NCBI GenBank assembly: GCA_965207065.1
Contig: OZ242260.1
Location: 1,856,001-1,920,000, forward strand
From: a bacterium
Lineage (GTDB): Bacteria > UBA8248
Length of the DNA: 64,000 bases
Reading direction: 5' to 3'
The notes under the pieces are model-generated. The model saw only the letters and a list, made by a program, of their open reading frames with translations. It searched no databases and had not been told where the DNA came from. Made by a program: the position numbers and the translations under genes. Shown one piece after another: positions 4,483 to 46,831 of the stretch; positions within the stretch are counted from its first letter, which is position 1, and each line of letters starts with the position of its first letter.

Positions 4483-5715
4483 TCAGATAACACCGTCTTG
4501 TTTGAGTCTTTCGATCTCTTCTTTCGCGAGGCCGAGGAGGTCGCCGAGAATCTCCTCGTTGTGCTCGCCGTTCAGGGGCGCGGGGGCGTCGTAGCCGCCG
4601 GGGGTTTTGTTGAATTTAAGCGGAAAGGCCGCCGTTTTGACTTCGCTCAGAGGACCCAGGGTGGGGTGGGGGAGGTCTTCGATCATGTCCCGCGCTTTCA
4701 GGTGCGGCCAGGCGAGGATGTCCCTGATGGTGTGGACCGGTCCGCAGATGACGTCGAAACGGCGCAGTTCCGCGAGCGCCTCATCCACGGTGTGCTTTTC
4801 CGTCCACTGCGTGATGACGGCGTCCACCTCGTCGTTGTTCGTGATGCGGCCGCTCAGGTCCGCATAGCGCGCGTCGCCCACCAGTTCCTCGCGCCCCACG
4901 GCGCGCAGGATATTGTTCCAGTGGGCGTCGGTGCCCGAACCGACCACCAGCCAGCCGTCCTTCGCCTGATACGCGTTGAAGGGGGAGAGGCGCATGATGC
5001 GGTTCCCCAGCCTATCGGGCAGCCCCAGCGAGTCGTAGCAGTCCATCGGCTCATCGAATACCAGGGACAAGAGGCAGTCCACCATCGAGACGTCTATCCA
5101 CTGGCCCTGGCCCGTGCGCTCGCGGTGCAGCAGCGCGGTGGTGATGGCGCCGTAGGCGAACGTGCCCCCGATGCTGTCCGCGATGGCGGAGCCCGTCTTG
5201 GTGGGGGGGCCGTCCGGGAAGCCCGTGAGATTCATGAGGCCCGAGACCGCCTGGGTGACGGCGTCATACCCCTTGAGCCGGGCGTCGGGGCCGCTCTGCC
5301 CGTAGCCGGTGATGGAGCAGTAGACGAGCCCGGGGTTGCGCTTGCTAAGCGTCTCGTAATCTATTTTGAGCCGTCCGGTGACGCCCACCGAGAAATTCTC
5401 GACGAGCACGTCGGCCTCATCCACCAGGCGGTAGAACAGGTCCAGCCCGCGCGGTTCCTTGAGGTTCAGGGTCAGGGATTTTTTGTTGCGGGTTCGCTTC
5501 AGGTAAGCGACGCCCAGATCGTCGTCGGATTGTTTGTGGAAGGACACGCCCTCAGGACCCGCGAAAGGAGGCCCCATGGCCACGACATCGCCCGTGGCCG
5601 GGTGGTTCACCTTGATGACCTCCGCCCCCAGACCGGCGAGCAGGAGCGTCGTCCAGGGACCCGAGTAGAACTGGGTCAGGTCCAGCACCCGGAATCCTTC
5701 CAGTGGTTTCGGCAT
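4483..5715 (-). CDS. Class III CoA-transferase (CaiB/BaiF family)
   Basis: PLEGFRVLDLT, GAEVIKV, RNKKSLTLNLK, DVLVENF, SITGYGQSGP, catalytic Asp in AIADSIGG; start set at MPKPL. Confidence 0.93.
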   Translation of the reverse strand: MPKPLEGFRVLDLTQFYSGPWTTLLLAGLGAEVIKVNHPATGDVVAMGPPFAGPEGVSFHKQSDDDLGVAYLKRTRNKKSLTLNLKEPRGLDLFYRLVDEADVLVENFSVGVTGRLKIDYETLSKRNPGLVYCSITGYGQSGPDARLKGYDAVTQAVSGLMNLTGFPDGPPTKTGSAIADSIGGTFAYGAITTALLHRERTGQGQWIDVSMVDCLLSLVFDEPMDCYDSLGLPDRLGNRIMRLSPFNAYQAKDGWLVVGSGTDAHWNNILRAVGREELVGDARYADLSGRITNNDEVDAVITQWTEKHTVDEALAELRRFDVICGPVHTIRDILAWPHLKARDMIEDLPHPTLGPLSEVKTAAFPLKFNKTPGGYDAPAPLNGEHNEEILGDLLGLAKEEIERLKQDGVI

Positions 5716-5800
5716 GACATGCTCCTGAGAAAAGAAAACGAGACGCATTTTTCTGCATCTCGATGATTCGTATGCGGTTTTCCGTTTCGTTATCGAGCGG

Positions 5801-6646
5801 TCAGTCCCCGCCGCCGTTCGTCTTCTCCTTGACGCGGCGAGCCTCGTCCATGGGGCACAGGGTGATGCAGGTCGCGCAGATGTGCGGCGCGTTCTCGGTG
5901 AAGGCCATCATGCGCCCGGCGAGCTGGAGTTCGGGATAGCCGTAGCGTTTCTTGAAGACGTCGACGGCTTTTTCCGGCGAGACTTTTTGGGGATACATGA
6001 CCATGCACTTGTAGTGGTCCACCGCGCCGTCTCCGGGGAGGGCGCCCGCAGGACAGGGCTTGATGCACTTGTACCCGCACTCCACGCAGAAATCGGGCAC
6101 CACGCCGTATTGCCTGGGCGGGTCGGGTTCGAGCGCCGCCGTCGTGATGACGGCACCCAGACGCAGGCGCGAACCGTATTCGGCGGTGATGAGGTTGTTG
6201 TTCACGCCGATTTCGCCCATGCCTGCGTTCACCGCCGCGAGCCTCAAGTCGAAGGAGCCCTGCATGAAGACTTCCGGTTCCGGGCCTTCGCGCAGGATGC
6301 GGAGCGAGGGTATGTCCCGCCCGGCGGGCGTGGGCAGCGCCATGTGTCCTTCATCCTCGAGCCAGAGCGCCAGCCGGTATGAGAGCTTGTTGATCCAGGC
6401 CTCGTGCCCGTAATAGCCGAATTCCAGATAGCCCACCGTAGGGCGTGAAGTGGCGTTGCCGAAGGGCATGCGGCGCGCGAAGACGACGACGCTTCTGGCT
6501 TCCTTTACGAGGTCTTCGGGCTTGCAGCCGGGGAGCGCTTTCTCGTAACCCTCGCAAGAGGAAATGTTTACGAGGTCAGCGCCGAATTCCCGGGCCTGCG
6601 CCTTGACTTCGGCGGAGGAAATCCCGGTGCCTGAGCCGTTATCCAT
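5801..6646 (-). CDS. QueG/reductive-dehalogenase-like 2x[4Fe-4S] protein (probably corrinoid-binding), paralog 2
   Basis: AVNAGMGEIGVNNNLITAEYGSRLRLGAVIT; CVECGYKCIKPCP and C...CATCITLCP cluster motifs. Confidence 0.8.
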   Translation of the reverse strand: MDNGSGTGISSAEVKAQAREFGADLVNISSCEGYEKALPGCKPEDLVKEARSVVVFARRMPFGNATSRPTVGYLEFGYYGHEAWINKLSYRLALWLEDEGHMALPTPAGRDIPSLRILREGPEPEVFMQGSFDLRLAAVNAGMGEIGVNNNLITAEYGSRLRLGAVITTAALEPDPPRQYGVVPDFCVECGYKCIKPCPAGALPGDGAVDHYKCMVMYPQKVSPEKAVDVFKKRYGYPELQLAGRMMAFTENAPHICATCITLCPMDEARRVKEKTNGGGD

Positions 6647-7549
6647 CTAGGGATTCTCCAGTAATGCCGGGTCGATGACCTTGCGCGCGTCTTCTTCGGA
6701 CCAGGATTCGCGGTGAAAAGGCGTATCTGCGAAATCGCGGCCCTGATCCATCGGGCAGAGCGCGATGCATGTGCTGCAGGCATGCGGCGGGCTGTCGGTG
6801 TAGGAGAGGCCTTTGGCCGCCATGATGAGGGGCTTGCCCCGGAACAGTTTCCTGAAGTGGGTGAGGGCTTTTTCCGGCGCGACCAGGTCCGGCCGTATGA
6901 CCATACAGCGGTAGTGATCGACGGTACCGTCGCCCGGGAGCGCGTTCGCGGGGCAGGCTTCGACGCAGCGAAAGCCGCATTCACGGCAGAACTCAGGCAC
7001 AACGCCGTACTGGTTGGGCGGGTCGGGCTGGAGGCGCGCCTCGGTGAGTACCGCGCCCAGGCGGACGCGCGAGCCGTACTTGGGCGTGATGAGGCAATTG
7101 TTGGCTCCGATATGCCCGAGGCCGGCCTTGACCGCCGCGAGCCGCAAGTCGAAGGAGCCTTGCAGGAAGACTTTGGGATCCGGCTCTTCTTCTTCCACGC
7201 GGAAGCTCGTGATATCGCGCCCGCATGGCGTGGCGCCCGAGAGCCAGCCCGCGTCTTCGAGATGAAGCGAGAGGCGGTAGCAGGCTTCGTTCAGGAAATT
7301 CTCGGGGATGTATTCGCCGAATTCCATCGCACCGATGCTGGGATAGGGCGTGGCGGCGGCGAAGGGGATGCGCTTGGCGATCACGACGACGCTGTTCGCC
7401 ATGTTGAACAAGTCTCTGGGTCGGCAGCCGGGAGCGGCTTCCGCGAAATCCTCCGCCGATGCGACCCCCGCGAGGTCAGCCCCCAGTTCACGGGCGAGGC
7501 GCTTAACCTCTTGATTATCAATGGGTTTTCGGGCCTCGGTTCGGCTCAT
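6647..7549 (-). CDS. QueG/reductive-dehalogenase-like 2x[4Fe-4S] protein (probably corrinoid-binding), paralog 1
   Basis: GADLAGVA, AVKAGLGHIGANNCLITPKYGSRVRLGAVLT; CRECGFRCVEACP and CSTCIALCP; start uncertain. Confidence 0.8.
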   Translation of the reverse strand: MSRTEARKPIDNQEVKRLARELGADLAGVASAEDFAEAAPGCRPRDLFNMANSVVVIAKRIPFAAATPYPSIGAMEFGEYIPENFLNEACYRLSLHLEDAGWLSGATPCGRDITSFRVEEEEPDPKVFLQGSFDLRLAAVKAGLGHIGANNCLITPKYGSRVRLGAVLTEARLQPDPPNQYGVVPEFCRECGFRCVEACPANALPGDGTVDHYRCMVIRPDLVAPEKALTHFRKLFRGKPLIMAAKGLSYTDSPPHACSTCIALCPMDQGRDFADTPFHRESWSEEDARKVIDPALLENP

Positions 7550-8173
7550 GAGAAACCTCGGGTTTTCGCCGTCGGCATCTGTTCGGTGACGTGGAGTTCT
7601 CGTCCTCTCGCGGAATCCATTTTGCCCTGAAGGGTTCATTCGAGAGGATGTGATGAATCTATCACAGCGCCGCGATGAGGCAAAATCGTTTCAAACGGGT
7701 CGTTCGGCGGCCGTCAGGTGCGTGATGCGCATTTCCCCGCAATTGCGGTCATCGCGCGGGACGCGGGCCATGGCAGAATTCCCCTGCGCTCGAATGCACC
7801 GGGCGTCATTTCCCCCCAAATAAATATTCAGAAATTTATCGAAAAACCCCGTGAATTTATCTGAATTTATCGAATTTTACGGAAATTATTATTTGCATTA
7901 TGCGCCTTCTGCGTTTCGCCCGGGCGGCGGCCCGGTTCCTGCGGGCAGCGCCCCTTCCGCCGCCTGAAAAAACGAAGGCCGACGGACGGCCTCTCCAGCA
8001 TACCCCGTCGACGCGAAAGTCCCCCGGCGGCAAATGCGGGGAATTGCGGGGTCAAACGCGATTGATGAATGAGTGTTTGACGCGACGGAGGAAGGAGGGT
8101 TTGTGGCCCGAGAGAAGAGGGTCTGTGATTCTGGATGCCTCTCTCTTCCGTAGGGGAGAGTGCGTAGTCAACC

Positions 8174-8234
8174 CCGACCGATAAGGGAGGGGTTGCCGAC
8201 CGATAAGGGAGGGGTTGCCGACCGATGAGGGAGG
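8174..8234 (+). repeat. 22-bp tandem repeat CCGACCGATAAGGGAGGGGTTG (about 2.8 copies)
   Basis: Copies at 8174-8195, 8196-8217 and a partial copy at 8218-8234; inverted partial copies at 8391-8403 and 8410-8422. Confidence 0.85.
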
Positions 8235-8420
8235 AGCCGCCCCCGCGCGCCGTCTTCCCGCCCGTCATGCCGGAGCCCTTTCATCCGGCATCCGGCGTCT
8301 TTGCGAATGAGAAGAGACGCGACCCGGCGATTGGGAACCGCGCGGCGGACGAGGAATGGCGTACGGATGTCTTTCCCGCCCCTGGCGAACCCTCATCGGT
8401 CGGGTTCTGCCTCCCTCATC

Positions 8421-8643
8421 GGGTCTGTTGAAAAACCCCTCATCCCGAGTAGGCGCGCTTGCGCGCCGTATCGAGGGACGGACGCAATCCCTCACTGTTC
8501 AATCGGGATTGACCCTTCGATACAAACACTCCTTTCTCAGTCGCGTTTGACCTTCGGCGGCTACTCAGGGTGAGGGCGATACGGCGGCCTGGCGGGGCGA
8601 GGGGAACACGCCCGCTACTGAAACGGAGTTTTTCAACAACCCC
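8421..8643. mobile_element. Putative MITE (about 220 bp, non-coding)
   Basis: Terminal inverted repeats GGGTCTGTTGAAAAAC / GTTTTTCAACAACCCC (14/16 match); internal segment repeated at about 12144-12180. Confidence 0.55.
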
Positions 8644-8763
8644 TCCCCGGCCGGGTTCGACCCCCGCCATTGACACCGCATCCCCTGCGTGAAAGCATCG
8701 CGGGAAACATCATCAACCAAGCGGGCGTTGTTCGCCTCCCGCCTCTCGATAAGGAGAGCAAGA

Positions 8764-9360
8764 ATGATACGGTGTATCAGTCGGTGTGCGGCGGTGATCT
8801 GTCTGGCGGTTTTTCTTGCGTGCGCGTTCGCTCTGAACACGGCGCAAGCCGCCGGGAAAGACGTCGTATTTGTGAAAGCGTTTTATCCCCTCGATGAGCC
8901 GAGGTTTCACTGCATCGACATCCCCGGTCACCGGGACCGCGTGAGAACCACCGCCGCCCTCGTCGTGCACACCTGCAAGGAGGGCATCTGGAACCTGGAC
9001 GGGCAGTTCGACCCCGCTTCTGTCAGGAAGGGCATGCTCCGGATGCCCGAATACGGCCTGTGCGTCGCCGCGGCCGCAGCCAAAGACGGCGCGAAGCTCG
9101 CCCTCAAAAAATGCGACGGCTCGACCCTCCAGACCTGGCGCTTTGATAACTACCGCTTAAGCTTGAAGGCGCATCCCGACAAGTGCATCACCATCGGCCC
9201 GGAACCCTCCCGGCTCACGCGGGGCGGACGCAGGCTCCCGAGCCGCCACATGGCGCGCTCCCTCGCCCTCGGGACGTGTTCGGAAGAATTTTTGGAAAGA
9301 CAACTCTGGCGGATGGAAAAGCCCATGAAGCGCACCGGCTCCATCATGCCGTTCAAGTAA
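8764..9360 (+). CDS. Secreted ricin-type beta-trefoil (lectin-like) protein
   Basis: Signal peptide; CIDIPG...HTC, LCV...LKKCDGSTLQTW, KCIT...QLW (QxW) repeats. Confidence 0.7.
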   Translation: MIRCISRCAAVICLAVFLACAFALNTAQAAGKDVVFVKAFYPLDEPRFHCIDIPGHRDRVRTTAALVVHTCKEGIWNLDGQFDPASVRKGMLRMPEYGLCVAAAAAKDGAKLALKKCDGSTLQTWRFDNYRLSLKAHPDKCITIGPEPSRLTRGGRRLPSRHMARSLALGTCSEEFLERQLWRMEKPMKRTGSIMPFK

Positions 9361-9485
9361 GGGCGAGGCGCTTCCACTTCATCTCGGGCCGGCGTGGGTG
9401 ACAGGTCGCGACCTGTCCCTGCCATATGATGCGAAGCTCTTCATTCAGTTGATTTCCCGATGTCACGAAGAGGAGGACTCACGCC

Positions 9486-17228: not shown

Positions 17229-18059
17229 GTGAGTCCCGAAGAACAACTTTCCCGAGTCGCCCTGGTGAAATCGGAAACCGAACGCCTCTCGGCGTACTGG
17301 CGCGCCTTTTCGGACGCGCGCTGGGAGCTGGACACGTTCTGCCCCGGCTGGCAGGCGCAGCACGCCGTCTCCCATCTGGCGACGGGGGGCGATTTTTACA
17401 CGAACTCGATTTGCCGGGCGCTCGATGGCCTTCCGCCAGAACCCCCTTATGGAAAAAACGTGAAGGAGTTTTTCGCCATCCGCGCCGCGAAGGGCGATGA
17501 ACTCATGGCCATGCCCCGTGACGGGATGATGGATGCATTCGACGCCTCAGCCAAAGCAGTGAACGACGCGCTTGCGGACATCACCGCGGACGACCTGGGA
17601 AAACTCGGCTTTCACCCCCGGGGCCTGACGCGGCTCGACGCCTGGATCGGACTCAGGCTCGTCGAACTCGTGGCGCACGACTGGGATATCCGCTACGGCG
17701 AGGACGCCGAAGCCTGCGTTTCCGCGGACGGCGTGAAGGGGGCCATGACCTTCCTGCCCGAGAGCCAGAGCCGCCTGTTCGGAGTGCGGGAGAACCCGCC
17801 GTTCGATGGCCGCTTTCTGTTCCGTTCGAAGACGCCCGATCGCGAATGGACGATCACCGTCACCGGCGAGAAGGCGGAGAATACCGCCGACACGTCCGGC
17901 GCGCACGACGCCGTCATCACCGCGGACGGCGAGGCGCACCTGCTCTTGTTGTACGGGCGCGCGAAACGCAGCGCCATGGAGGCCGCAGGCCGCCTTGAGG
18001 TTGAAGGAGACGCGGAGCTGGCGAATGAACTCCTGTGCGTTCTTTATACGAATTATTGA
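17229..18059 (+). CDS. Maleylpyruvate isomerase N-terminal (MDMPI/DinB superfamily) protein with SCP2-like C-terminus
   Basis: TFCPGWQAQHAVSHL and ELVAHDWDIR motifs; GTG start after GGAGG. Confidence 0.8.
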   Translation: MSPEEQLSRVALVKSETERLSAYWRAFSDARWELDTFCPGWQAQHAVSHLATGGDFYTNSICRALDGLPPEPPYGKNVKEFFAIRAAKGDELMAMPRDGMMDAFDASAKAVNDALADITADDLGKLGFHPRGLTRLDAWIGLRLVELVAHDWDIRYGEDAEACVSADGVKGAMTFLPESQSRLFGVRENPPFDGRFLFRSKTPDREWTITVTGEKAENTADTSGAHDAVITADGEAHLLLLYGRAKRSAMEAAGRLEVEGDAELANELLCVLYTNY

Positions 18060-18079
18060 TTCGAAAGGAGCAAGACCCC

Positions 18080-18973
18080 ATGTCACCGATCACGGAAGTC
18101 GATGGATACGTCTATTACCCCGGCAGCAAGAAGCGCATCGGCGCCATGCGGCCTGCCGATCCGGCGAAAACGCCGTGGACGCCGCTGGGAAAACCGCTGT
18201 CAGAATGCAAGGTCACCCTCGTCTCCACGGCGGGCATATTCATGAAGGGAGACGTCTCATTCGACTATGAGCGCGAGTGGCGCGAGCCGCACTGGGGGGA
18301 CCCCACCCACCGGGAGATCCCCAAAACGGCCGCCCAGGATGACTGCGAATACTCGCACCTGCACATCAACACCGAGTATCTGCAAAAAGACAGGAACACC
18401 GCGTTTCCGGTGGATATCTTCCTGGACTACGAGCGCGAGGGAAAAATCGGCGCGCTGGCCGACACCCTCTACTCCACGATGGGCTATACCCCCAACTTCC
18501 ACCCCCTGATGAAGAAGACGGCCCCCCTCATGGCGGAAAAGATGCACTCCGAGGGCGTGGACGCGGCCTTCCTCATCCCCGTCTGACCGCTCTGCATGCG
18601 GTCCGTGAGCCTGCTGCAGAGAAGATTGGAAGAGTTGGGAATCGCCACCGTCTCGATATGCAACCAGCCGGAAGTGTCGGAGAAGGTCTGCGTGCCGAGG
18701 GCGGTCTTCATCCAGTATCCCTTCGGCCGCATGCTGGGAGACGTGGGCGACAGGGCGGGCCAGCGCGCGGTGTGCGACGACATGTGCGCGCATCTGGAAG
18801 CCGCGGATGGCCCGAACGCCTACCGCCACCTCACGCACGAGTGGCCAGAACCCCCCGAGGAAACGCAGTGGCATCCCCTCACGCCCGCGCCCATGCACGT
18901 GCTTCGCAACAACGGCACCGCGCCCAAGGGCTTGGGGCATTACCAGGACGAGGAGCGGCCGGATTTGAGCTAG
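18080..18973 (+). CDS. Selenoprotein, glycine/sarcosine/betaine/proline reductase B (GrdB/PrdB)-like, 297 aa, Sec at codon 169 (TGA 18584-18586)
   Basis: WTPLGKPLSECKVTLVSTAG N-terminus; in-frame reading AFLIPV-U-PLCMRSVSLLQRRLEELGIATV; hairpin downstream of the TGA. Confidence 0.88.
18590..18621 (+). promoter_or_regulatory. Putative bacterial SECIS element
   Basis: CTCTGCA/TGCAGAG stem plus inner GCGG/CTGC stem, starting 3 nt after the UGA. Confidence 0.65.
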
Positions 18974-23520: not shown

Positions 23521-25323
23521 CTATTTCTTACTCAACCGCTTCCTTCTCCGCCTGGTCCGGGCCATATCCACTTCGCCCGTCTCGTCGATAGCGACGCCGT
23601 AGACCTTCCAGGCGCGCTCTTTGGTGATCCACTTCTCCTCCACGTCCTCGCGCACCTTCTCGACGGGCCGCTCGTGCGGCGGGCCGTAGCCGCCCCCGCC
23701 CGTGCAGTAGGACGCCACGTTCTCGCCGGGTTTGAGAATAATGTCCGCACAGCCGGGCAGGTCTTCCAGAGAGCCGTCTTCGCGCATGAGGAAGTTCCGG
23801 CAGACCGCACCGTTCAGCCCGCCGAGCGTTCCCTTCGAAGCGTTTACCGCGCCGTCGGACACATAGACGACTTCCAGGTCCCCCCCGCCCACCGGGCCGT
23901 ATTCGCAATAGCCCGAAGGCGCGCCTATCGTCCGGCCCGCGCCCTCGGTGTCGGGCATGAGCCTGCGCGTCTTGATGTAGATGGGGAAATGAAGCTCGTC
24001 CAGCTCGATGCTGTCCACGAAGCACATGCCCGCGTTGCCCGCGTGTAAGATGGTGAGCCAGGCGTCGGTTTTCCCTGCGCCCGCTCCGCCCGTGACCATC
24101 AGGAAGAGGTGGTTCACGAAAGGTTCGTTGTCGTTTCTGGGGTCGAAGCCCGAGATGACGCCCATCGACGCCGGGAAAATCGGCCCGCACTCGGCCAGCC
24201 CGATGCCGTCCTGAATCTTCGAGAACGCGCGCTGCACCGGGTTCGTCACCCGGTCGGCGAGGTTGGTGGTGGCGACGGACATCGAAGTGGGGTGCTTGCC
24301 CCCGCCCGCGACGGAGCCGTCTCGAATCAGCACGTTCACGCGGCGGAAGCTGCCCGCGTTCGTGGGCACGATGTCGTCGATGCTGTTGAACACGCCTATC
24401 ATCGCGCCCGTGCGCGCGCAGGCCTCGCTCAGGTTCAGGCCGCACGGCATGGCGTCGGGGTTGTCCGTTAAATCCACCTCGATGGTGGCCTTCTTGTTGT
24501 CGATCCGCACGTGCGCGGTGATGGGGATGCCCTCATCCGGCGTGCCGGGCACGGGGTCGTGCGTGCTGTGGGTCGTGGCCTCGCCCGTGGGGAGTTTCCT
24601 GATGGCGGATACCATGAGCTTCTCGCTGTAGTCGAACCACTCTTTCGAGAAGTCGTGCAGCGTCTCCCAGCCGTATTCATCGCCCATGGCGAGCACCTCG
24701 CGCTCGCCGATACGCGCCGCGCCTATCATGGCGAGGTAATCGCCGTACCACTGCTCGGGCACGCGGATGCGCATCCGGCAGAAGTTGATGAAGTCCTCGT
24801 TGTCCTCGTAGTTCGTCTGCACCTTGGTGGGCGGGAAGATGAGCGCGCCCTCCTCATACACGTCGCGCGCGTGGCCCATGTAGGTGGTGGGCTGGCTGCA
24901 TCCGCAATCCGCCTGGTGGGCCTTCACCCACACGGTGAACTGGTGCTCGCCCCGCTTGTCGATGACGGGCACCAGGATGGTGTGGTCCGCCGGGTGCGAG
25001 CAGCCGTGGTAGGGCGAGTTGTGGAGATAGGCGTCACCGCGCTTCAAGTTCGGGTGTAGGTCCATCATCGAGCGGGCCATCAGGTCCGCCCCGCTCAGGT
25101 GGTGGATGGGGAGCGATTCCGCGCCCGTCAGCAGTTCGCACTCGCGCGTCACCACGGAGGTCGAGAAATCGCGCGCGAGGTTCAGCACGCCCGAGCGGCC
25201 CGTGCGCAGGAGCGTGTTCGCCATCTTGGTGGTCACGGCGTCGAAGCGCTTGTGCAGCACCGCCAGGGTGATGGGGTCCAGTTTCGTTTTTTGCTTCGCG
25301 CGTCTCGTTGTTGCTCTCGCCAT
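23521..25323 (-). CDS. Hydantoinase B/oxoprolinase family protein
   Basis: DPITLAV, RDFS, NSPYHGCSHPAD, HQADCG, GGGGYGPP. Confidence 0.92.
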   Translation of the reverse strand: MARATTRRAKQKTKLDPITLAVLHKRFDAVTTKMANTLLRTGRSGVLNLARDFSTSVVTRECELLTGAESLPIHHLSGADLMARSMMDLHPNLKRGDAYLHNSPYHGCSHPADHTILVPVIDKRGEHQFTVWVKAHQADCGCSQPTTYMGHARDVYEEGALIFPPTKVQTNYEDNEDFINFCRMRIRVPEQWYGDYLAMIGAARIGEREVLAMGDEYGWETLHDFSKEWFDYSEKLMVSAIRKLPTGEATTHSTHDPVPGTPDEGIPITAHVRIDNKKATIEVDLTDNPDAMPCGLNLSEACARTGAMIGVFNSIDDIVPTNAGSFRRVNVLIRDGSVAGGGKHPTSMSVATTNLADRVTNPVQRAFSKIQDGIGLAECGPIFPASMGVISGFDPRNDNEPFVNHLFLMVTGGAGAGKTDAWLTILHAGNAGMCFVDSIELDELHFPIYIKTRRLMPDTEGAGRTIGAPSGYCEYGPVGGGDLEVVYVSDGAVNASKGTLGGLNGAVCRNFLMREDGSLEDLPGCADIILKPGENVASYCTGGGGYGPPHERPVEKVREDVEEKWITKERAWKVYGVAIDETGEVDMARTRRRRKRLSKK

Positions 25324-25332
25324 ATCCTGCTC

Positions 25333-27399
25333 CTAGAGCGTGATGAACAGACTGCCGCTTCTCGTGCGCTCGGCCTTGGCGCCGGGGTCGATGACCACCG
25401 TCGTGAACGGTGATTCGATGATGGCCGGCCCGCGCATCGCCGCACCCGCCTTCATGGCATCGAACGCCGCCACGCGCGCGTTCACGAGTCCCTTGCCCGC
25501 GAAGTAGGCCTCCCGCCTTTTGGGCAGCGTCGTCTCGTGGATCGCCTCGCGCACGAGCCTGCCGAGGCGGCCCTTTCTCAGTTTACACCGCGCCACGGCG
25601 CGCCAGCCGACGAACTCCACTTCCGAAGACGGATCGCGGAAGGCGAACACCTCCTCGTGTACTTCGTCGAAAGCGGCGCGCGCTCTCTCCACGTCTTTTT
25701 TCGAGCGGAAGCGGTTGATGGGCAGCCCCAGATCGATCTCCCATATCTGGTGCTTGTAGCGCGCCTCGACGTAGAACTCCGTCGCGCTCTCCACAGCCCC
25801 CTTGCCGGGGCCTTTGATGAACGCGCGGCACCTGTCGCCGAGCGTTCTCAATACCGCGTTGGCGCCCTTGAAGTCGAACCTGTCCGTGATGGTGAAGAAC
25901 ATTGAACGGTAATCGGCGTGTAAATCGCTCATCATCGCGCCCGCGGCGGAGAGCGCGGCGCCCACCTCGGGGATGACGAGTCCTTGACAGCCCAGCCGCT
26001 TGGCGATGGCGACCGAGTTCAGGCCCGCCGCCCCGCCGCCGCCGATAAGAACCGCGCCCCTCGGGTCGATGCCCTGGTGGATGGTGATCTCTTCGATCGC
26101 GCCCACCATGTTTTCTGTCGCCAGCCGCAGGATGGCCGAGGCCGCCTCCTGGAGGGATAGCCCCAGCGGTTCGGCCACGTCTCTCGATATGGCTTTTTCG
26201 GCTTCTGCAGGATTGAGCGTCATTGCGCCGCCCAGGAAATAATCCGGGTCGATGTGGCCGAGCACCAAAGATGCGTCCGTGAGCGTGGGCCGCGTGCCGC
26301 CCCGGCCGTAGCAGGCGGGTCCCGGTTCCGCGCCCGCGCTCTGCGGTCCCACGTGTAAGAGTCCGCCCTCATCCACCCATGCGATGCTCCCGCCCCCTGC
26401 GCCGATGCTCTTCACGTCCACCGAGGGGAATCCCAGAATGTGGCCCCGGTAGCGCTGGCCGAGCCAGGTTTCGGGCGACATGGGTATTTCGCCCCGTCGC
26501 ACCAGGCTCACGTCGTAGGTGGTGCCGCCGGTGTCGGCCACAATCGCCGTCGCGGCCTTGGCGTCTGCGCGGGAGAAGTGCCTGCCCGCGATGGGCGCCA
26601 TCGAGGGTCCCGAACCCACCGAGTGGATGGGCGCATCTGCCAGTTCGTCCGCGTCCATCACGCCGCCCTTCGACGTCAGCATCAGGAGCCGCCCGCCGAA
26701 GCCCGCCGCCTTGAGTCTTTCCTGCAGACCGCCGATGTAGCGCGACATCAGGGGCTTCAAGGATGCGTCGATGCAGGTGGAAGACGCCCGGCGGTATTCG
26801 CGCAGAATCGGGTTGAGAACATGCGATAGAGTAAAAGGAACCCCCTTCAAGTGTTTTTTCAGCAGCTTGCCCACGCCGATTTCGTGCGCGGGATTCACGG
26901 TGGACCACAAGAGAGAAACGGCCACCGCCTCCACCTCTTTTTCTTTCAACTCCTCGATGATCGCGATGACGCCCGCCTCATCGAGCGGCTCGTATACGCC
27001 CCCGTCGGCGCCCATGCGCTCGGGTACCTCGAAGGTGAGCGCGCGCGGGACGTATGGCTTCGGGAACGGCACTAAGAAGTTGAACGGCTCCATGCGCCCG
27101 CCCTCGCGCAGCACGAGAATGTCGGGGTGTCCCTTCGTGGTGAGGAAGGCGGTCCTGGCGGTATTTCCCGTCACGATGGCGTTGGTGGCGTGGGTGGTGC
27201 CGTGGATGAAAAGCTCGCCCTGGGCGAGGAGTTCGCCGATGCTCGTTGAGAGCGCTTCGGCCGCCGCCTCAATGGCCGCGAGAATGCCCTCCACCGGGTC
27301 CTGGGGCGTCGTGGGGGCCTTGAACATGTGGAGCCGGCCCCGGTTGTCCTCGAGCACCAAATCGGTGAAGGTCCCGCCCGTATCGACCGCGAATCGCAT
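25333..27399 (-). CDS. Hydantoinase A/oxoprolinase family protein
   Basis: DTGGTFTD, HGTTHATNA, SGP, DTGGTTYDV, IGAGGGSIA, GPQSAGAEPGPACY. Confidence 0.93.
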   Translation of the reverse strand: MRFAVDTGGTFTDLVLEDNRGRLHMFKAPTTPQDPVEGILAAIEAAAEALSTSIGELLAQGELFIHGTTHATNAIVTGNTARTAFLTTKGHPDILVLREGGRMEPFNFLVPFPKPYVPRALTFEVPERMGADGGVYEPLDEAGVIAIIEELKEKEVEAVAVSLLWSTVNPAHEIGVGKLLKKHLKGVPFTLSHVLNPILREYRRASSTCIDASLKPLMSRYIGGLQERLKAAGFGGRLLMLTSKGGVMDADELADAPIHSVGSGPSMAPIAGRHFSRADAKAATAIVADTGGTTYDVSLVRRGEIPMSPETWLGQRYRGHILGFPSVDVKSIGAGGGSIAWVDEGGLLHVGPQSAGAEPGPACYGRGGTRPTLTDASLVLGHIDPDYFLGGAMTLNPAEAEKAISRDVAEPLGLSLQEAASAILRLATENMVGAIEEITIHQGIDPRGAVLIGGGGAAGLNSVAIAKRLGCQGLVIPEVGAALSAAGAMMSDLHADYRSMFFTITDRFDFKGANAVLRTLGDRCRAFIKGPGKGAVESATEFYVEARYKHQIWEIDLGLPINRFRSKKDVERARAAFDEVHEEVFAFRDPSSEVEFVGWRAVARCKLRKGRLGRLVREAIHETTLPKRREAYFAGKGLVNARVAAFDAMKAGAAMRGPAIIESPFTTVVIDPGAKAERTRSGSLFITL

Positions 27400-39381: not shown

Positions 39382-39478
39382 CGCCCGGGCGTTGCCCCTC
39401 TCGCCCGGTTCGGCGACTATCGGATGGTGGCGGGATATTCGGCGGTTTCATGATGAGGAAACTTTCTTTCGGGAGGAG

Positions 39479-40165: not shown

Positions 40166-40200
40166 GGGCGCGCGCCGCCCGCTTTTTTGAGGATGTTCCG

Positions 40201-41004: not shown

Positions 41005-41049
41005 GGAACAACCACTATTCCATGAAGATATTCTTTGGAGCAGTACGAC

Positions 41050-41637
41050 ATGAAAAAAATCATCTTCATCTTAGCGGTAGGCGCATTCCTCTTCTTTCTT
41101 TTTTTCCAGTTCAAAGATAGTTCGAGTAAGACTCGTGATATAGATACCAGCGAATTTATCATGAAGTTAATGGGGAAGAGCCATGAATTGCTTTTAAACC
41201 AATGCAAGCCTATGGGCGTAGTAATAAATGGAAACAAGCATTTATTAGAGACAGAACCACTTCCAACCAAAATCAAAGTAGGTATAAAAGAATCAGATAG
41301 GATTTCCATCAGTAATTTAGTGATAAATAAATTGCGTTCGCATGGCCTTTATAGAGAGAACTTGGTTATTACGCACAAAACAGATGAACCCGTATCAGTA
41401 TTATACATCGATGCCTTGGCCATTGGAGGTGACCATAATATTAGCTTGTATTTTAGGAAAGATATTCGAGACATTATTTGGAATGCCCCCATTTACTCGG
41501 GAGAAGATGAAATTTTGTGGTCAAACTATTTGCTTCCAGAGCTAACAAATGGAGACATATCATCAGAAGTATCAAAGCATGTTGATTATTTCTTGAGTGA
41601 GTTCCTTAAGGCCAATAAGGATGAATGCGGAAAGTAG
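41050..41637 (+). CDS. Hypothetical membrane-anchored protein, low GC
   Basis: MKKIIFIL... N-terminal TM helix; AT-rich open frame. Confidence 0.6.
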   Translation: MKKIIFILAVGAFLFFLFFQFKDSSSKTRDIDTSEFIMKLMGKSHELLLNQCKPMGVVINGNKHLLETEPLPTKIKVGIKESDRISISNLVINKLRSHGLYRENLVITHKTDEPVSVLYIDALAIGGDHNISLYFRKDIRDIIWNAPIYSGEDEILWSNYLLPELTNGDISSEVSKHVDYFLSEFLKANKDECGK

Positions 41638-41856
41638 GGCCTTGATATTGGGAATTCCGTAAAACAACACCGCGCCGCTGTTTCGGGCGAGTGAATCCCA
41701 ATTCCCGGAAAGCGCCTGAAGCCGCCGCCGGTTTGACAAAAGGCTTGATCTTGGGGCAAGAAAAAACCGGTTTCATTCTCATTGCTTATCGAACCGGACG
41801 GCCTTGATATTCGGAAAGCGAGGTGCGCCATCCTCAAGAAGATTTTCGGCAGGTTT

Positions 41857-42480
41857 ATGCAGAAGAATGACCCTCCATCAGTAGGCGGGCCGCCCGCGCC
41901 GAGTGGCGGCTTCGGCCTGCCCATGGCGCCGGATCAGGCGGGGCAGGAAGCCCTTTTCGCCGAAAAAATCGAGGCCCACGGTAAATGGCTGCAAAGTTCC
42001 GGCGCGCGCGGAGAACGCGCCGACTTCTCGGGCGCGCATCTCGAGGCGATCAGCCTTTTCATGGTGAATCTCACCAAGGCGGATCTGCGCGAAGTTCATC
42101 TCGCGGGTGCAAATGCGCAATGGGCGAACCTCGATGGGGCGGACCTCGCCGGCGCCCATCTCGAAGGGGCCGATCTGTTCCAGTCCAGCCTCGAGGGGGC
42201 GAATCTCACCGGCGCGCGGATGGCAGGAGCGAACATGATGTCGGCCGCTCTCAAGTTCGCGGATTTGACGGGCGCGGACCTCACGGGAGCCGACCTGCGC
42301 GGCGCCTCGCTCCAGCGGACGAAGCTCTCGGGCGCGAACCTCTCGGACGCGCTTGTCGACGAAGCCGACCTGGAGCTCACCGACATCCGGGGCGTCGATC
42401 TCTCGGGTGTAAAAGGGCTGACGCCCGAGCAGGTAGAAGGCGCGCTCAAGGACGGAGAGACGCTCTTCCCGGATGTATGA
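41857..42480 (+). CDS. Pentapeptide repeat protein
   Basis: HGKWL..G.RADF followed by tandem A(D/N)LxG repeats. Confidence 0.9.
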   Translation: MQKNDPPSVGGPPAPSGGFGLPMAPDQAGQEALFAEKIEAHGKWLQSSGARGERADFSGAHLEAISLFMVNLTKADLREVHLAGANAQWANLDGADLAGAHLEGADLFQSSLEGANLTGARMAGANMMSAALKFADLTGADLTGADLRGASLQRTKLSGANLSDALVDEADLELTDIRGVDLSGVKGLTPEQVEGALKDGETLFPDV

Positions 42481-42547
42481 GGCTTATCTTCGGGATATTT
42501 CCTTGTGATCGTATTGGAAGTGCAAAGCTGAAAAGACGTTGATTACG

Positions 42548-42979
42548 TCACTTGAGCAGAGGCTCGACTTCTGAAGAAGATACGAGTTCTTTTATCAATC
42601 CGTAATTCAGGCGCTGGTTCTCCCGTTTGAGGTTGGGAATTTCTTTATCAACTACTTCGTTGATTTCAATGGCGATTTTTTTGGGATTTTTATCCCCGTA
42701 ATTTATCAGGAATCCCATTAGTTTTCCGCTGTTCTCGCCAACGAATATACTTGTCGTTTCGTTTCGCTTTCGCTCTATGGCTTTTTCGTTGTCGATGTAA
42801 TGGAATGTGAGCTTCATTTTTTCTTGTTCTTCATCGGTATTCGATGTAAGTGATTTCGGTATATCGAACACGGACAGTGAAATAGATACTTTGACACCAT
42901 TAATGTTTTTAATTACTTCTTGCGCTTTAAGAAGATGATGGAAATTTTCTGAATCGAGGATAATGGTTTTTTCCGTCAT
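42548..42979 (-). CDS. Hypothetical protein, low GC
   Basis: 143-aa ORF with GGAG RBS, directly downstream of the 43004-43690 gene. Confidence 0.65.
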   Translation of the reverse strand: MTEKTIILDSENFHHLLKAQEVIKNINGVKVSISLSVFDIPKSLTSNTDEEQEKMKLTFHYIDNEKAIERKRNETTSIFVGENSGKLMGFLINYGDKNPKKIAIEINEVVDKEIPNLKRENQRLNYGLIKELVSSSEVEPLLK

Positions 42980-43003
42980 AGGGTTGTCTCCAGGCCGAAT
43001 CGA

Positions 43004-43690
43004 CTATAGCAATTTTTCAATGGTGGCGGCAATAGATTCAAACAGTTCCTTATTCTTGGAATTGTCCAAAAAGTCATCAGGATTTCTGCTGTCCAAGACG
43101 AGAACACCCCATCTTTTTCCGTCTAAATTCCGTATGGGCGTGGCGGCGATGCTTCTGGATTTGACGTTCAGTCGTTTGGCTTTCCCCAAAGGCAAATGAC
43201 CCGCCTTTGCATATTCTTTGCATGTATCGTCATCATCGCGCCATTGTGAGGAAATTTTAGGCAAGTCAGAGTAATTGAGCGTCGTATCCTTGAACCAGGC
43301 CTGTCCCGCAATACCTTCATTCTGCATTTCGTTGTCGTTGTTAATTTGAAAAGATTGCACATTCCTCTGATATTGCGTACCCGAACGGCAAAAGAATTTC
43401 AGTTTGGTTTCTCTGCGATTCGCTTTGAAAAGTGTCGCTCGGTGGTGAAACATTTCATCGGGAGGCATGTTCTTGAATAGTGCATCGCGTAGGATATTCA
43501 GAGCGCTTTTATATGACGCTTTGGATATCCAGTTGATATATTCTTCTCCAATAAACGCCGCACCGGCGATAACCCCCAGTAAAATGTATACTTTGCCGTT
43601 CTTGAAATTCAGTAACGGGAGAGTCGTAAGCAATAGCAGGCATATGAATTGGCCCGTTTTGGTAAAAAAGACGAACCTTCTATGTTGCAT
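43004..43690 (-). CDS. Hypothetical 2-TM protein with GAF-like domain, low GC
   Basis: Two hydrophobic segments; EGIAGQAW and SRSIAATPI...WGVLVLDS GAF-like motifs. Confidence 0.65.
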   Translation of the reverse strand: MQHRRFVFFTKTGQFICLLLLTTLPLLNFKNGKVYILLGVIAGAAFIGEEYINWISKASYKSALNILRDALFKNMPPDEMFHHRATLFKANRRETKLKFFCRSGTQYQRNVQSFQINNDNEMQNEGIAGQAWFKDTTLNYSDLPKISSQWRDDDDTCKEYAKAGHLPLGKAKRLNVKSRSIAATPIRNLDGKRWGVLVLDSRNPDDFLDNSKNKELFESIAATIEKLL

Positions 43691-43923
43691 GAATACGCTT
43701 TCTGGGTCCTCAATATGCCTTTAAGAGATATCCTTAATGTATATGCGGGAAATAAAGAAAACAACTGTATTTGCAAGCATTTTGAAGCGGATCACAATTT
43801 CGGGAGTACGTGCGCGCACATATTCGAGGGTTTGGTTTTCGGCGTCTCCTCCGTGTCTTTTTCTTTTGCGGAAATCGGTTTATGATGAATTTTTTGGGGA
43901 ACAATGAGCAGGAGTGATTCGGC

Positions 43924-45018
43924 ATGTCGCAGACGACGCAAATGGTGGACCAGGAAGTCGATCTGGTGGAGTACTACTACGAACAGGGTTTTTCGGACGG
44001 GCTTCCCGTCGTCCCGCCCACGCCCGAGAAGATAGACGCCGCCCTCGCGGCCCTGGGCGGCGATAAAGACCTCATCGAGTGCCGCGTGCCCCCGCGCTGG
44101 GGCAACCTCACGAGAGAGGTTCTGGCGATCAACATGGTGATGGCGGGCTGCAAGCCGGAATACGCGCCCGTCGTCCGCGCGGCGATGCTGGCGCTTTGCG
44201 ACCCGCATTTCAACCTGAACGGTGTACAGGCCACCACCCACATGGCGTGTCCCCTCATCGTGGTGAACGGGCCGGTTCGCGGCGAGATAGGCATGAACGC
44301 GGGCTGCAACGTGTTCGGCTCGGGCAACCGCGCAAACGCGACGATAGGCCGCGCGGTGCGGATGATGCTCTTGAACGCCGGCGGCGCCTGGCCGGGCGAC
44401 TTGGACAAGAGCACGCTGGGCTGCCCCACGAAATACACCTACTGCATCGCGGAGAACGAAGAGGCGAGCCCCTGGGCGCCCTACCATGTGGAGCAGGGCT
44501 ACGCGCCCGAGGATTCCACGGTCTTCGCCATCGCCGCCGAGGCCCCCCACAGCGTGACGAACCACATCTCGGATGATCCCGAGGGCATCCTCGACAGCAT
44601 CTGCTCGGCGATGAGCACGATCGCGCACAACAATTCGGTGAGCAGCGGTTCTTGCGCCGTCGTCATCAGCCCCGAGCACGGGGCGACCATCAGCGCAAAA
44701 AACTGGACGCGAAACGACGTGAAGAGCTACTTGTGGATGCACACCAAAAACACGTTCGCCGATATTTCGTTCAACCACCGCTACGGGAAGGTCTACAACC
44801 GAAACATCCCCAAGTGGTACAGGCGCGAGCCGGACGAGAGAATCCCCATCGTGCCCAGTCCCGAGAACATTCACCTGTTCGTGGCGGGCGGGGATGCGGG
44901 GCGTTTTTCGGCGTTCATTCCCGGCTGGGGCCACATGACGAATCCGGTGCTGCGGGCCATTGACGGAAGAGCGCTCGAAGGCGGCCCCGTCTGCGTGGAC
45001 GGCACCTGTCTGCTATAG
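43924..45018 (+). CDS. Conserved partner protein of UGSC-family selenoproteins
   Basis: GFSDGLPVVPPT, AINMVMAGCKPEY, GNRANATIGRA, AENEEASPW; C-terminal CVDGTC. Confidence 0.8.
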   Translation: MSQTTQMVDQEVDLVEYYYEQGFSDGLPVVPPTPEKIDAALAALGGDKDLIECRVPPRWGNLTREVLAINMVMAGCKPEYAPVVRAAMLALCDPHFNLNGVQATTHMACPLIVVNGPVRGEIGMNAGCNVFGSGNRANATIGRAVRMMLLNAGGAWPGDLDKSTLGCPTKYTYCIAENEEASPWAPYHVEQGYAPEDSTVFAIAAEAPHSVTNHISDDPEGILDSICSAMSTIAHNNSVSSGSCAVVISPEHGATISAKNWTRNDVKSYLWMHTKNTFADISFNHRYGKVYNRNIPKWYRREPDERIPIVPSPENIHLFVAGGDAGRFSAFIPGWGHMTNPVLRAIDGRALEGGPVCVDGTCLL

Positions 45019-45044
45019 CGTTTCAGAGAAAACAGGAGGAAACC

Positions 45045-45587
45045 ATGAGTGACGTCATCACTGGCCAGGTCGTCTACGACCCCCGGGGGGTGGTGGAGGC
45101 CGAGGCCCAGCCCACCGCAAAACGCGTCGGGGACCTGAAGGGTCTCAAGCTTGGAGTCCTGGACAACACCAAGTGGAACGGGCGCAGGCTGCTCGAGAAG
45201 ACCACCGCGCTGATGGAGGCGGAAGGCCCCTTCTCCGAGGTGCATTACTACAAGAAAGAGAGCTTTTCCAAGAACGCGGCGCCCGATTTGATCGCGCAGA
45301 TCGCGGAGGAGAACGACGTCGTCCTGACGGCGATTGGCGACTGAGGCTCCTGCACTTCGTGCTGTATGCACGATGCGATTTCCCTGGAAGAAAAAGGCGT
45401 GCCCACCGCAGTCGTCGTGACCGAGGTTTTCCTGCATGAGGCCCACGTGCAAAGGGCGGCCTTAGGCATGAACGGCCTGGACCCCGTTGTCATCCAACAC
45501 CCCCTGAGCACGCTGTCTGATGAGGAAATCTCCGCGCGCGCGGGCGATGCGGCCCGCCAGGCGGTGAAGATTCTGCTCGAAGGCTAG
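45045..45587 (+). CDS. UGSC-motif selenoprotein, 180 aa, Sec at codon 100 (TGA 45342-45344)
   Basis: In-frame reading VLTAIGD-U-GSCTSCCMHDAISLEEKGVPT; hairpin downstream of the TGA. Confidence 0.9.
45352..45376 (+). promoter_or_regulatory. Putative bacterial SECIS element
   Basis: TCGTGC-TGTAT-GCACGA stem-loop 12 nt after the UGA, GU in the loop, extended by GCA/TGC with a bulge. Confidence 0.7.
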
Positions 45588-45598
45588 CCCGGCATTTC

Positions 45599-46831
45599 AT
45601 GACGAAGCCACTCGAAGGCATCCGCGTCCTCGACCTGACGCAGTTTCTCTCAGGCCCGCAGGCCACGCTTTTTCTGGCGGGGCTGGGGGCCGAGGTCATC
45701 CGTATCGACAATCCGGCCACGGGCGACCCGGTGGCCTATTCCCCTCCCTACATCGGCGAGAAGGGCGTCTCCTACCATCCCCAGACGGATGAAGACCTGG
45801 GAATGGCCTACCTCAAGCGCACGCGCGCGAAAAAGGCGATTACCCTGAACATCAAGGACCCCCGGGGTCTCGATATGTTCTACGGACTCGTCGATCGCTC
45901 CGACATCCTGGTAGAGAATTTCTCCGTCGGCGTCACGAAAAGGCTCAAGATCGACTACGAGACGCTTCATGCGAGAAAACCCTCCCTGGTCTACTGCTCC
46001 ATCACGGGCTACGGCCAGACGGGGCCGGACTCCGGCCTCAAGGGCTACGACGCCGTCTCGCAGGCGGCCTCGGGCCTCATGAACCTCACCGGATTTCCCG
46101 ACGGTCCGCCCACCAAGGCGGGCTCCGCCCTGGGCGACAGCGTGGGCGGCACGTTCGCCTTCGGCGCCATCATGACGGCGCTCTTTCACCGCGAGCGCAC
46201 AGGCATGGGCCAGCAGGTCGACATTTCGATGATCGACTGCATCTTCTCGCTCATATTCGATGAGCCGATGGATTGCTACGAGCAGCTGGGGCTTCCGCCC
46301 CGCATCGGCAATCGCATCATGCGGCTTGCGCCGTTCAACGCGTATGAGACGAAAGACGGCTGGGTCATCATCGCCTCGGGCACCAACGCGCACTGGCACA
46401 ACATTCTGCGCGGCATCGAGCGGGCGGATTTGATCGGCGATGAACGATACGAGGACATGAGCCGGCGCGTGAGCAGGGTCGCGGAGGTCGACGCCACCAT
46501 CACCGAATGGACGAGGCGGCGCGAGACGAAAGAAGCGGTCTCCTGGTTGCGCGAGCACGATGTCATCTGCGGGCCGGTGAACAGCATCGACGACATTCTC
46601 GCGTGGCCCCACATGCAGGAGCGCGGGATGATTGTCGACCTCGAACACCCCACCCTCGGAACCCTTGAGAGCGCAAAAGCCCCGGGCTTCCCCTTCAAAT
46701 TCAGCGAAATGGAAGGCGGCTACGCCGCTCCCGCCCCGCTCGTCGGCCAGCACAACGCGGAATTACTGGGCGGCCTGCTCGGCGTGTCGGATGCGGAGTT
46801 GAAAGAACTCGAAGATGAGGGCGTGGTCTAG
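45599..46831 (+). CDS. Class III CoA-transferase (CaiB/BaiF), close paralog of 4483-5715
   Basis: PLEGIRVLDLT, LVENFSVGVT, SITGYGQTGP, ALGDSVGG. Confidence 0.93.
   Translation: MTKPLEGIRVLDLTQFLSGPQATLFLAGLGAEVIRIDNPATGDPVAYSPPYIGEKGVSYHPQTDEDLGMAYLKRTRAKKAITLNIKDPRGLDMFYGLVDRSDILVENFSVGVTKRLKIDYETLHARKPSLVYCSITGYGQTGPDSGLKGYDAVSQAASGLMNLTGFPDGPPTKAGSALGDSVGGTFAFGAIMTALFHRERTGMGQQVDISMIDCIFSLIFDEPMDCYEQLGLPPRIGNRIMRLAPFNAYETKDGWVIIASGTNAHWHNILRGIERADLIGDERYEDMSRRVSRVAEVDATITEWTRRRETKEAVSWLREHDVICGPVNSIDDILAWPHMQERGMIVDLEHPTLGTLESAKAPGFPFKFSEMEGGYAAPAPLVGQHNAELLGGLLGVSDAELKELEDEGVV

Follow-up and report, generated by a model that had tools for sequence, protein, structure and literature searches.

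Within a 64,000-nt stretch of bacterial DNA (the window; positions 1856001-1920000 of contig OZ242260.1, assembly GCA_965207065.1), two related family III CoA-transferases are each encoded behind a different redox module. Copy A follows the genes for a selenoprotein of the UGSC family and its partner protein (locus A). Copy B follows a tandem pair of genes for Fe-S proteins that resemble the core of QueG and of the reductive dehalogenases, RdhA (locus B). The best explanation, to which we give a probability of about 0.55, is that these are separate clusters in which each transferase feeds a CoA thioester to its own redox enzyme. The host genome is a single contig of 4.48 Mb (59.5% GC, 96% complete), and the close relatives that carry the loci are metagenome-assembled genomes (MAGs) labelled Nitrospinota.

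Copy B (P0001) occupies positions 4483-5715 of the minus strand; its open reading frame (ORF) can be extended to 5748, and homology to the paralog begins at Met12, which corresponds to 5715. Copy A (P0002, 410 amino acids) occupies 45599-46831 of the plus strand and starts 11 nt past the UGSC stop codon. Both match PF02515 (CoA_transf_3) over profile positions 1-366 of 366, with 390.7 bits for copy B and 377.5 bits for copy A at a cut-off of 23.3. A pairwise alignment of the two is gap-free and holds 274 identities in 410 positions (67%). An earlier, sequence-only reading had called them colinear, with long shared blocks that include AYLKRTR, and every block it quoted was found in both. A six-frame phmmer scan of the whole genome recovered 19 family III paralogs, among which copies A and B are mutual best matches at 660 bits, with the next paralog at 290. 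Both copies fall under the cut-offs of all seven NCBIfam equivalog models of named specificity (succinate-glutarate, mesaconate, formyl-CoA, oxalate, carnitine). The best of these models was that of succinate-glutarate CoA-transferase (NF052585; 281-304 bits, top 303.6, cut-off 750), and the succinyl-CoA:mesaconate CoA-transferase model (NF041294) gave 274-286 bits against a cut-off of 700. One Asp in a GSA..DS.GG block is identical in both copies and is a candidate for the catalytic residue that forms the aspartyl-CoA thioester. Copies A and B can be placed as paralogs of one clade-specific family III subtype related to the succinyl-CoA:dicarboxylate transferases. They resemble these enzymes in being full-length members of PF02515 and in their top named models, but they differ in falling far under the equivalog cut-offs, in carrying their own AYLKR[TAG]R signature and in having their own neighbours.

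The extent of this subtype was seen in a neighbour survey that scanned one genome per species and yielded 80 loci. A transferase of the window clade is present in 47 of them: 28 A-type or single-copy loci, 18 B-type loci and one that is neither (Bradyrhizobium, L046). AYLKRTR is a signature of the clade: it is exact in 36 of the 47 clade rows, the other 11 have AYLKR[AG]R or AFLKRLR, and none of the 52 rows outside the clade carries it. In a tree of 38 rows (IQ-TREE, LG+G4, rooted on other family III paralogs of the host genome), the subtype forms one clade of 26 rows with support 100/100. Its two proteobacterial rows, L043 and L046, form the sister group of Nitrospinota (97/96). Nitrospinota in turn divide into two clades: one of nine B rows (100/96), with the metagenome contig L093 at its base, and one of 15 rows that unites A and single-copy loci (94/95). 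The family III transferases of two further loci discussed below (L082 and L094) fall in other clades. Because both branches of the deepest split include loci with the UGSC context, this is the likelier ancestral state, and the B lineage would have switched partners once. On this tree, copy B did not arise by recent tandem duplication of A; an older duplication would fit, and so would a transfer.

Neighbouring genes were classed by tblastn (E<=1e-8, at least half of the query covered), and counts were restricted to loci with enough upstream DNA (26 of the 28 A-type or single-copy loci and 16 of the 18 B-type loci). Partner and UGSC genes stand upstream of the transferase in 25 of these 26, and the remaining locus (L044) has the partner only. 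The QueG-like pair stands upstream in all 16 B-type loci and is tandem in every locus with room for both genes. The neighbourhoods of the clade are thus not random. Orthologs of copy A (84-97% identity) are in the same position in 17 loci, and those of copy B are 83-97% identical. The partner-UGSC-transferase triad recurs in other Nitrospinota genera. Distant members of the phylum with a single transferase (63-74% identity) keep the partner and UGSC upstream, and five of these loci (L034, L037, L040, L042, L047; 63-70%) also have genes for a fumarylacetoacetate-hydrolase (FAH)-family protein and an aminotransferase downstream; three of the five have a TPR gene within a spacer of about 1.9 kb. 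In a proteobacterial MAG (L043), partner (40% identity), UGSC (29%) and transferase (53%) are all kept, and a LysR regulator comes next.

Presence and absence tell a similar story for locus B. Among 23 genomes of the genus, host included, the pair and the two clade transferases occur in the same 19, where the B ortholog is 83-100% and the A ortholog 66-69% identical. The remaining four (G022, G024, G028, G034; 94-100% complete) have no pair and either one clade transferase or none. A small genome (G033) keeps the pair and copy B while its neighbours lack them; after the arrangement arose, these genes must therefore have been gained or lost jointly at least once. Synteny and this joint presence in 19 of 23 genomes bear out the earlier claim that one CoA-transferase subtype is tied to two different modules.

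Both modules are also found beside other CoA-transferases. Outside the genus, the QueG-like pair was found in four distinct contexts (L099 is identical to L096 and was not counted), and a CoA-transferase adjoins it in all four, in three architectures. On a contig with 50% GC (L093), the pair and a transferase of the same subtype are at 76-82% identity, the transferase itself at 76%. Pairs at 54-62% identity adjoin other CoA-transferases. One of these (L094) lies with a family III transferase of a different clade, an enoyl-CoA hydratase and two carboxyltransferases. In two others (L096 and L097) an enzyme of the acetyl-CoA hydrolase/transferase family, unrelated to family III, is immediately upstream of the pair, with an enoyl-CoA hydratase and a ferredoxin in addition at L096. 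As for the selenoprotein module, the host genome encodes eight UGSC genes (seven found by tblastn and one in L082) and 15 partner paralogs. L082 is a second complete operon that holds, by Pfam, a TRAP transporter, a family III transferase of another clade, an enoyl-CoA hydratase, UGSC and the partner. Two acyl-CoA dehydrogenases precede UGSC and partner in L081, and a CitE-like acyl-CoA lyase precedes a partner gene behind a 2-oxoacid dehydrogenase operon in L084. Since each module also lies beside non-orthologous CoA-transferases, CoA-activated substrates are suggested for both, and both modules probably act on CoA thioesters. To this extent the earlier proposal of CoA-activated substrates held up; the proposal as a whole is partly supported.

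At locus A, the sequence-only reading had placed a partner gene and a UGSC selenoprotein gene before copy A, and both ORFs and the in-frame TGA were found. The partner (P0005, 364 amino acids) is encoded at 43924-45018 of the plus strand and ends 26 nt before UGSC. The UGSC gene (45045-45587, plus strand, 180 amino acids) encodes selenocysteine (Sec) at residue 100 by the TGA at 45342-45344, within the motif GD-U-G-S-C. The protein scores above both curated cut-offs of its family (PF24696, 197.2 bits against 25; NF041046, 159.2 against 125). The TGA lies at the identical codon in all 29 UGSC orthologs and paralogs of the window type (A-locus-type and single-copy) that carry it, with one Cys form, in Bradyrhizobium. 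Matches to PF24696 are found in 43 of 51 genomes of the phylum, and among the matches listed each has exactly one in-frame TGA. The genome also encodes the machinery for Sec, with a tRNA-Sec and a SelB at 386 bits against a cut-off of 242. The hairpin after the UGSC TGA is modest (-14.7 kcal/mol, z -1.56; matched or beaten by 13 of 200 shuffles). Sec decoding of UGSC is a secure prediction. Sec100, G101 and S102 show no variation; C103 is nearly invariant, with U-G-S-S in the copy of L082. The Cys form in Bradyrhizobium sp. (C-G-S-C, 52% identical; L052:12618-13172, minus strand) is encoded upstream of a TPP-enzyme gene, and a fragment of a clade transferase is about 5 kb away.

The partner matched no Pfam or NCBIfam family. 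Its invariant residues in 24 sequences include DGLP, P32-T33, A74-G75-C76 and G142-R143-A144. The AF2 model of the partner (pLDDT 82.9) found no convincing fold match: the best Foldseek hit was a class I fumarate hydratase (E 9e-4, TM 0.26), and a wide fold search gave a best Z of 6.5, with chorismate-mutase/RidA-like subdomains at Z 4-6 and no fold that could be named. Only 'hypothetical protein' clusters were returned by the ESM Atlas, and profile searches of the PDB with UGSC and partner gave nothing meaningful (best E 1.3 and 0.11). The AF2 model of UGSC (pLDDT 89.2) is a parallel-sheet alpha/beta/alpha sandwich with the Sec at a helix start, and its top Foldseek hits are flavodoxins, azoreductases and TIR domains (TM 0.4-0.5). 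As modelled, the UGSC fold is flavodoxin-like, and a thioredoxin fold is not evident.

One paralog in the host genome is a fusion of UGSC and partner, a single ORF of 536 codons with one TGA (L090:6880-8487, minus strand; about 1410879-1412486 of the contig). A fusion of UGSC with a protein called Unknown_1 was reported in 2008 (Zhang and Gladyshev, PMC2398784), and because a fusion exists in the host genome too, the partner is most probably Unknown_1. UGSC and partner are probably one two-part enzyme; adjacency and fusion are the observations that argue for physical binding. The fusion gene adjoins a second partner paralog and an FAD oxidoreductase, with YcaO and a small nitrile-hydratase-alpha-like ORF a few kb off, a setting that resembles those of RiPPs. 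A further genome locus (L088, 1423000-1441000) has four tandem partner paralogs, with UGSC encoded 2.6 kb beyond them; adjacent genes encode a tryptophan-halogenase-like protein, a cupin and a C39-peptidase ABC exporter.

At locus B, two QueG/RdhA-like proteins had been described before copy B, and two paralogous Fe-S proteins (E 1e-101) are indeed encoded there on the minus strand: P0003 (5801-6646, 281 amino acids) and P0004 (6647-7639). The latter is an ORF of 330 amino acids whose true start is probably near Met31. The stop of P0004 abuts the start of P0003, and in the window copy B follows after 52-85 nt. On the RdhA model TIGR02486 the two proteins score 57.2 and 61.1 bits against a cut-off of 160, matching only profile positions 156-279. 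On the QueG model TIGR00276 they score 46-57 bits (51 for P0003) against a cut-off of 200. With both models, only the C-terminal half is matched. P0004 matches the structures of PceA (8q4h, E 2e-15) and QueG (5d6s, E 2e-13). A profile of 18 sequences of the pair family aligns by hhalign with the QueG of the genome at 97% probability (E 8e-11, 219 columns, residues 6-270 against 58-308 of 445), and with PceA 8q4h in three colinear segments (E 4e-21).

Eight Cys residues are conserved in the 18 sequences (C187/190/194/198, C214 and C257/260/264), seven of them invariant and C187 nearly so. In QueG, the ligands of the two clusters are Cys184/187/190/194, 210 and 236/239/243 (PMC4646009). The spacing in the pair (CxxCxxCxxxC ... 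C ... CxxCxxxC) parallels these ligands, with one extra residue in the first motif. QueG also has a C-terminal HEAT-repeat domain (PMC4646009), which is missing from the pair, whose proteins stop where the alignment does, at residue 308 of the 445 in QueG. Single chains of 725-836 residues with two QueG/RdhA-type cores exist, and because the genes for P0003 and P0004 abut and such double-core forms occur, a heterodimer of the two is supported. The ESM Atlas returned short 'epoxyqueuosine reductase family' and ferredoxin clusters for P0003. An exhaustive profile search of the QueG-like family gave 116 representative clusters at E<=1e-30; the number rose to 1600 at E<=1e-10 and to 7586 at E<=0.001, and only about five clusters exceeded 240 bits. 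This search overturned a word-index search (64 proteins) by which the family had looked rare overall: few clusters score above 240 bits and many match at looser E values, so the close subfamily is small and the wider short and double-core group is not. Relatives at 28-42% identity were excluded as members of the same system, as they are single genes or have a differing context (L107, L108 and L141-L144). Among them, the metagenome contigs L107 and L108 have the QueG-core gene as a single copy (28-37% identical), and genes for B12-binding radical SAM proteins adjoin it.

Several known systems can be set beside the two loci. With QueG and the RdhA proteins (PceA, NpRdhA), the pair shares colinear homology over the cobalamin-binding core and ferredoxin part, the eight-Cys ligand spacing and a Tyr that aligns with the one conserved above the corrin. 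It differs in the size of its proteins (only 281-330 residues), in occurring as tandem paralogs or a fused double core, and in lacking the HEAT domain that is a feature of QueG. No TAT-type leader or RdhB-type partner of the kind seen with RdhA was noticed for the pair, and it is surrounded by genes for CoA-transferases and crotonases, not by tRNA or organohalide genes. The locus A protein shares the U-G-S-C motif with Sec that defines the UGSC family (PMC2398784). A thioredoxin-like fold was suggested there, whereas the model here is flavodoxin-like, and the passages on UGSC in that report do not mention a repeated tie to CoA-transferases. FldA with phenyllactate dehydratase, HadA with 2-hydroxyisocaproyl-CoA dehydratase, and CaiB with CaiA and CaiD each join a family III transferase to a CoA-ester-specific enzyme. 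The logic is the same in these systems: CoA is recycled by the transferase that activates the acid, and the thioester is converted by a Fe-S or flavin enzyme that is sensitive to oxygen. The enzymes in the window come from other families, and a gene for an ATP-dependent activator was not seen.

The two-part UxxC selenoenzymes GrdB and PrdB (with GrdE and PrdA), of the glycine, sarcosine and betaine reductases and of D-proline reductase, offer another parallel to UGSC and partner. The window itself encodes a PrdB/GrdB-like selenoprotein (18035-18973, plus strand) that is read through a TGA at 18584-18586 in a V-U-P-L-C motif. This protein matches PF07355 and scores 118 bits against 300 on TIGR04483 and 52.8 against 65.45 on TIGR01918. 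No PrdA/GrdE-like neighbour was noticed, and a mycothiol-maleylpyruvate-isomerase-like/SCP2 gene overlaps its start. An hhalign comparison of UGSC with the PrdB-like protein placed Sec on Sec and was not significant (probability 4%, E 0.0098; reversed control E 0.84). The local resemblance consists of a strand, the U-x-x-C helix and an 'LEE.G..T' strand. Neither UGSC nor the partner has a GRDB (PF07355) or Gly_reductase match in Pfam, and a pyruvoyl group in the partner is pure speculation.

How the two clusters would work can be outlined as follows. An organic acid, probably dicarboxylic, would be taken up by the cell. The transferase would make, and probably recycle, its CoA thioester, which the cytoplasmic redox enzyme of each cluster would then transform. 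This reading of uptake, activation and transformation follows from what the contexts have in common: a CoA-transferase, often a crotonase or acyl-CoA dehydrogenase, and nearby acid transporters. Such transporters include a TctA in the window and TRAP systems in L082, L093 and L046. The enzyme of locus A would be a two-part selenoenzyme of UGSC, with Sec100 and Cys103 at a helix start, and the partner, with Cys76; Sec/Cys redox or a covalent mechanism between UGSC and Cys76 of the partner is likely. The enzyme of locus B would be a heterodimer of two minimal QueG/RdhA-type cores, each with two [4Fe-4S] clusters, and its reaction would probably remove a heteroatom substituent reductively from an acyl-CoA. 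This is proposed because of the eight Cys residues, the Tyr above the corrin and the chemistry of the class III superfamily, in which Co(I) attacks a carbon with a leaving group (PMC4646009). As to history, the UGSC context would be the older one; copy B would have diverged and been recruited to the QueG-like pair, after which the three genes were kept or lost as a unit. The earlier proposal spoke of parallel or cooperating chemistries. The loci are 40 kb apart, and 4 of 23 genus genomes and several other genera have locus A but lack locus B, so 'parallel' is the better word and 'cooperating' fits poorly. A bolder version is tentative and rather unlikely as a whole. By it, the pair would be a third branch of class III cobalamin/[4Fe-4S] enzymes that removes O or halogen (from an epoxide, hydroxyl or halide) from a dicarboxylyl-CoA, UGSC and partner would carry out an analogous reductive cleavage next to the thioester, and Se and B12 would be alternative routes to related CoA-activated acids, with a separate copy of the one transferase feeding each route.

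Several observations weigh against the reading of two CoA-thioester clusters. Most of the linkage evidence comes from close kin and is non-independent. The spacer between the pair and copy B reaches 2.8 kb, and in one locus (L023) it holds an opposite-strand ORF of 361 codons, so the pair and copy B are not always one transcript. In L045 (match 6001-6570) transferase A is cut to about 190 residues (about 3-195) and the FAH gene is missing, with partner, UGSC, hydrolase and aminotransferase retained; this looks like a natural loss of the transferase. A family III transferase is near only two of the eight UGSC loci of the genome; the remaining loci have peptide ABC transporters or RiPP-like genes, or are uninformative. 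The D-Y-H motif is strictly conserved in QueG, with Asp130 as the proton donor and the Tyr common to QueG and RdhAs (PMC4646009). It faces Y-Y-G in the pair, where only the Tyr is kept (Y79, nearly invariant; placement from one alignment), and Asp130 stands opposite an alignment gap. Cobalamin binding by the pair is a prediction by homology to the class III cobalamin/[4Fe-4S] core, and CobQ was not found in the 96%-complete genome, which only suggests corrinoid salvage. A distant single-copy QueG-like subfamily (40-42% identical) has mixed contexts, and one of its three informative loci adjoins a CoA-transferase fragment. Some of these points would also be expected if gene order were simply inherited without coupling, with ordinary dicarboxylate CoA-transferases beside unrelated redox genes. 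That most loci come from one genus or family, that the pair-to-B spacer varies and can hold an opposite-strand gene, that L045 keeps UGSC and partner with a truncated transferase, and that promoter and terminator scans did no better than chance all agree with this explanation. It is nevertheless unlikely. Pair and copy B are kept or lost jointly (together in 19 of 19 genomes, in none of the four others), the partner-UGSC-transferase order is kept between phyla at 29-53% identity, and both modules lie beside non-orthologous CoA-transferases and crotonases.

A tighter coupling, in which both loci encode successive steps of one pathway on the same carbon skeleton, could draw on the 67% identity of the transferases, which may accept similar acids, and on their lying within 40 kb. 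We consider it quite improbable, given the 4 of 23 genus genomes and the single-transferase genera that have locus A without B; a transferase for each locus would be superfluous in one pathway, and a shared regulator was not seen. A looser role for UGSC and partner, in general thiol/selenol redox chemistry with no special tie to CoA esters (such as that of a thioredoxin-linked reductase acting on varied small molecules or peptides), would suit the diverse contexts of the eight UGSC and 15 partner genes in the genome, and UxxC motifs are typical of redox proteins (PMC2398784). This appears improbable too: paralog expansion with differing neighbours fits substrate-specific enzymes, CoA-ester enzymes occur in three of about 10 genome loci, and the triad is conserved across phyla. 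A tRNA-modifying role for the QueG-like pair, be it as a second epoxyqueuosine reductase or otherwise, is hardly credible. Its core is homologous to QueG and some public sources label relatives 'epoxyqueuosine reductase', but the pair scores far under the QueG cut-off of 200, a canonical QueG (350 bits) is encoded elsewhere in the genome, the C-terminal HEAT-repeat part is absent, the D-Y-H motif with its Asp is not kept, and the neighbours are CoA-ester enzymes.

Both loci have further neighbours. The transferase had been described as the last gene of each locus, which is the case at locus B; at locus A, three genes come after it on the plus strand. A dienelactone-hydrolase-like alpha/beta hydrolase (46815-47684; PF01738, 36 bits) overlaps the end of copy A by 17 nt; of the 18 close A-type loci (L001-L018), 14 have this gene past the transferase. 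It is followed by the FAH-family protein (47827-48813; PF01557, 210 bits; best NCBIfam model of the HpaG C-terminal type, 149 bits, under its cut-off) and a class III (omega-type) aminotransferase (48908-50275; PF00202, 325 bits; NF005812, 497 against a cut-off of 488). The FAH-family gene is downstream in most A-type loci and the aminotransferase in A-type loci, and both are also downstream in L040, L042 and L047. Upstream of locus A, a pentapeptide-repeat protein (41782-42480, plus strand; PF00805) is encoded in nearly all A-type loci, and no functional tie to locus A is assigned to it. The segment 40001-44000 has a GC content of 0.51 against about 0.62 around it and holds the pentapeptide-repeat gene, a GAF-domain gene and an ORF of 143 codons; only a subset of related genomes has these.

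Just downstream of locus A, a YciW/AhpD-like selenoprotein is encoded at 50324-50986 (plus strand), with a TGA at 50567-50569 in a C-N-Y-U motif. A paralog without Cys and Sec at the motif follows at 50996-51601 (plus strand), and NF053654 scores 44-46 bits, far under its cut-off. With the UGSC, PrdB-like and YciW/AhpD-like genes, the window holds three Sec genes. On the minus strand at 23521-27399 are hydantoinase/oxoprolinase A and B genes, then a short-chain dehydrogenase, an alpha/beta hydrolase and a class IV aminotransferase, a small catabolic cluster unrelated to the transferase loci.

UGSC is among the most abundant selenoprotein families of aquatic metagenomes, and the available passages on it give no function since its first listing (PMC2398784, and a 2026 review, PMC13188914). 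A literature search, judged by titles, found no published link between QueG-like proteins or reductive dehalogenases and CoA-transferases. The sequence-only reading had proposed an undescribed pathway: the UGSC/partner pair was already in the literature as the 2008 fusion (PMC2398784), while the link of a QueG-core pair to CoA-transferases appears to be new, as does the finding that one transferase subtype serves both orphan enzymes. To our knowledge, dehalogenation and epoxyqueuosine reduction are the only two chemistries described for class III cobalamin enzymes. Both orphan enzymes now gain a testable class of substrates, the CoA thioesters made by a defined transferase subtype. The same transferase scaffold paired with each of them provides a natural comparison, and the acids used by copies A and B would narrow the substrate search for both enzymes at once.

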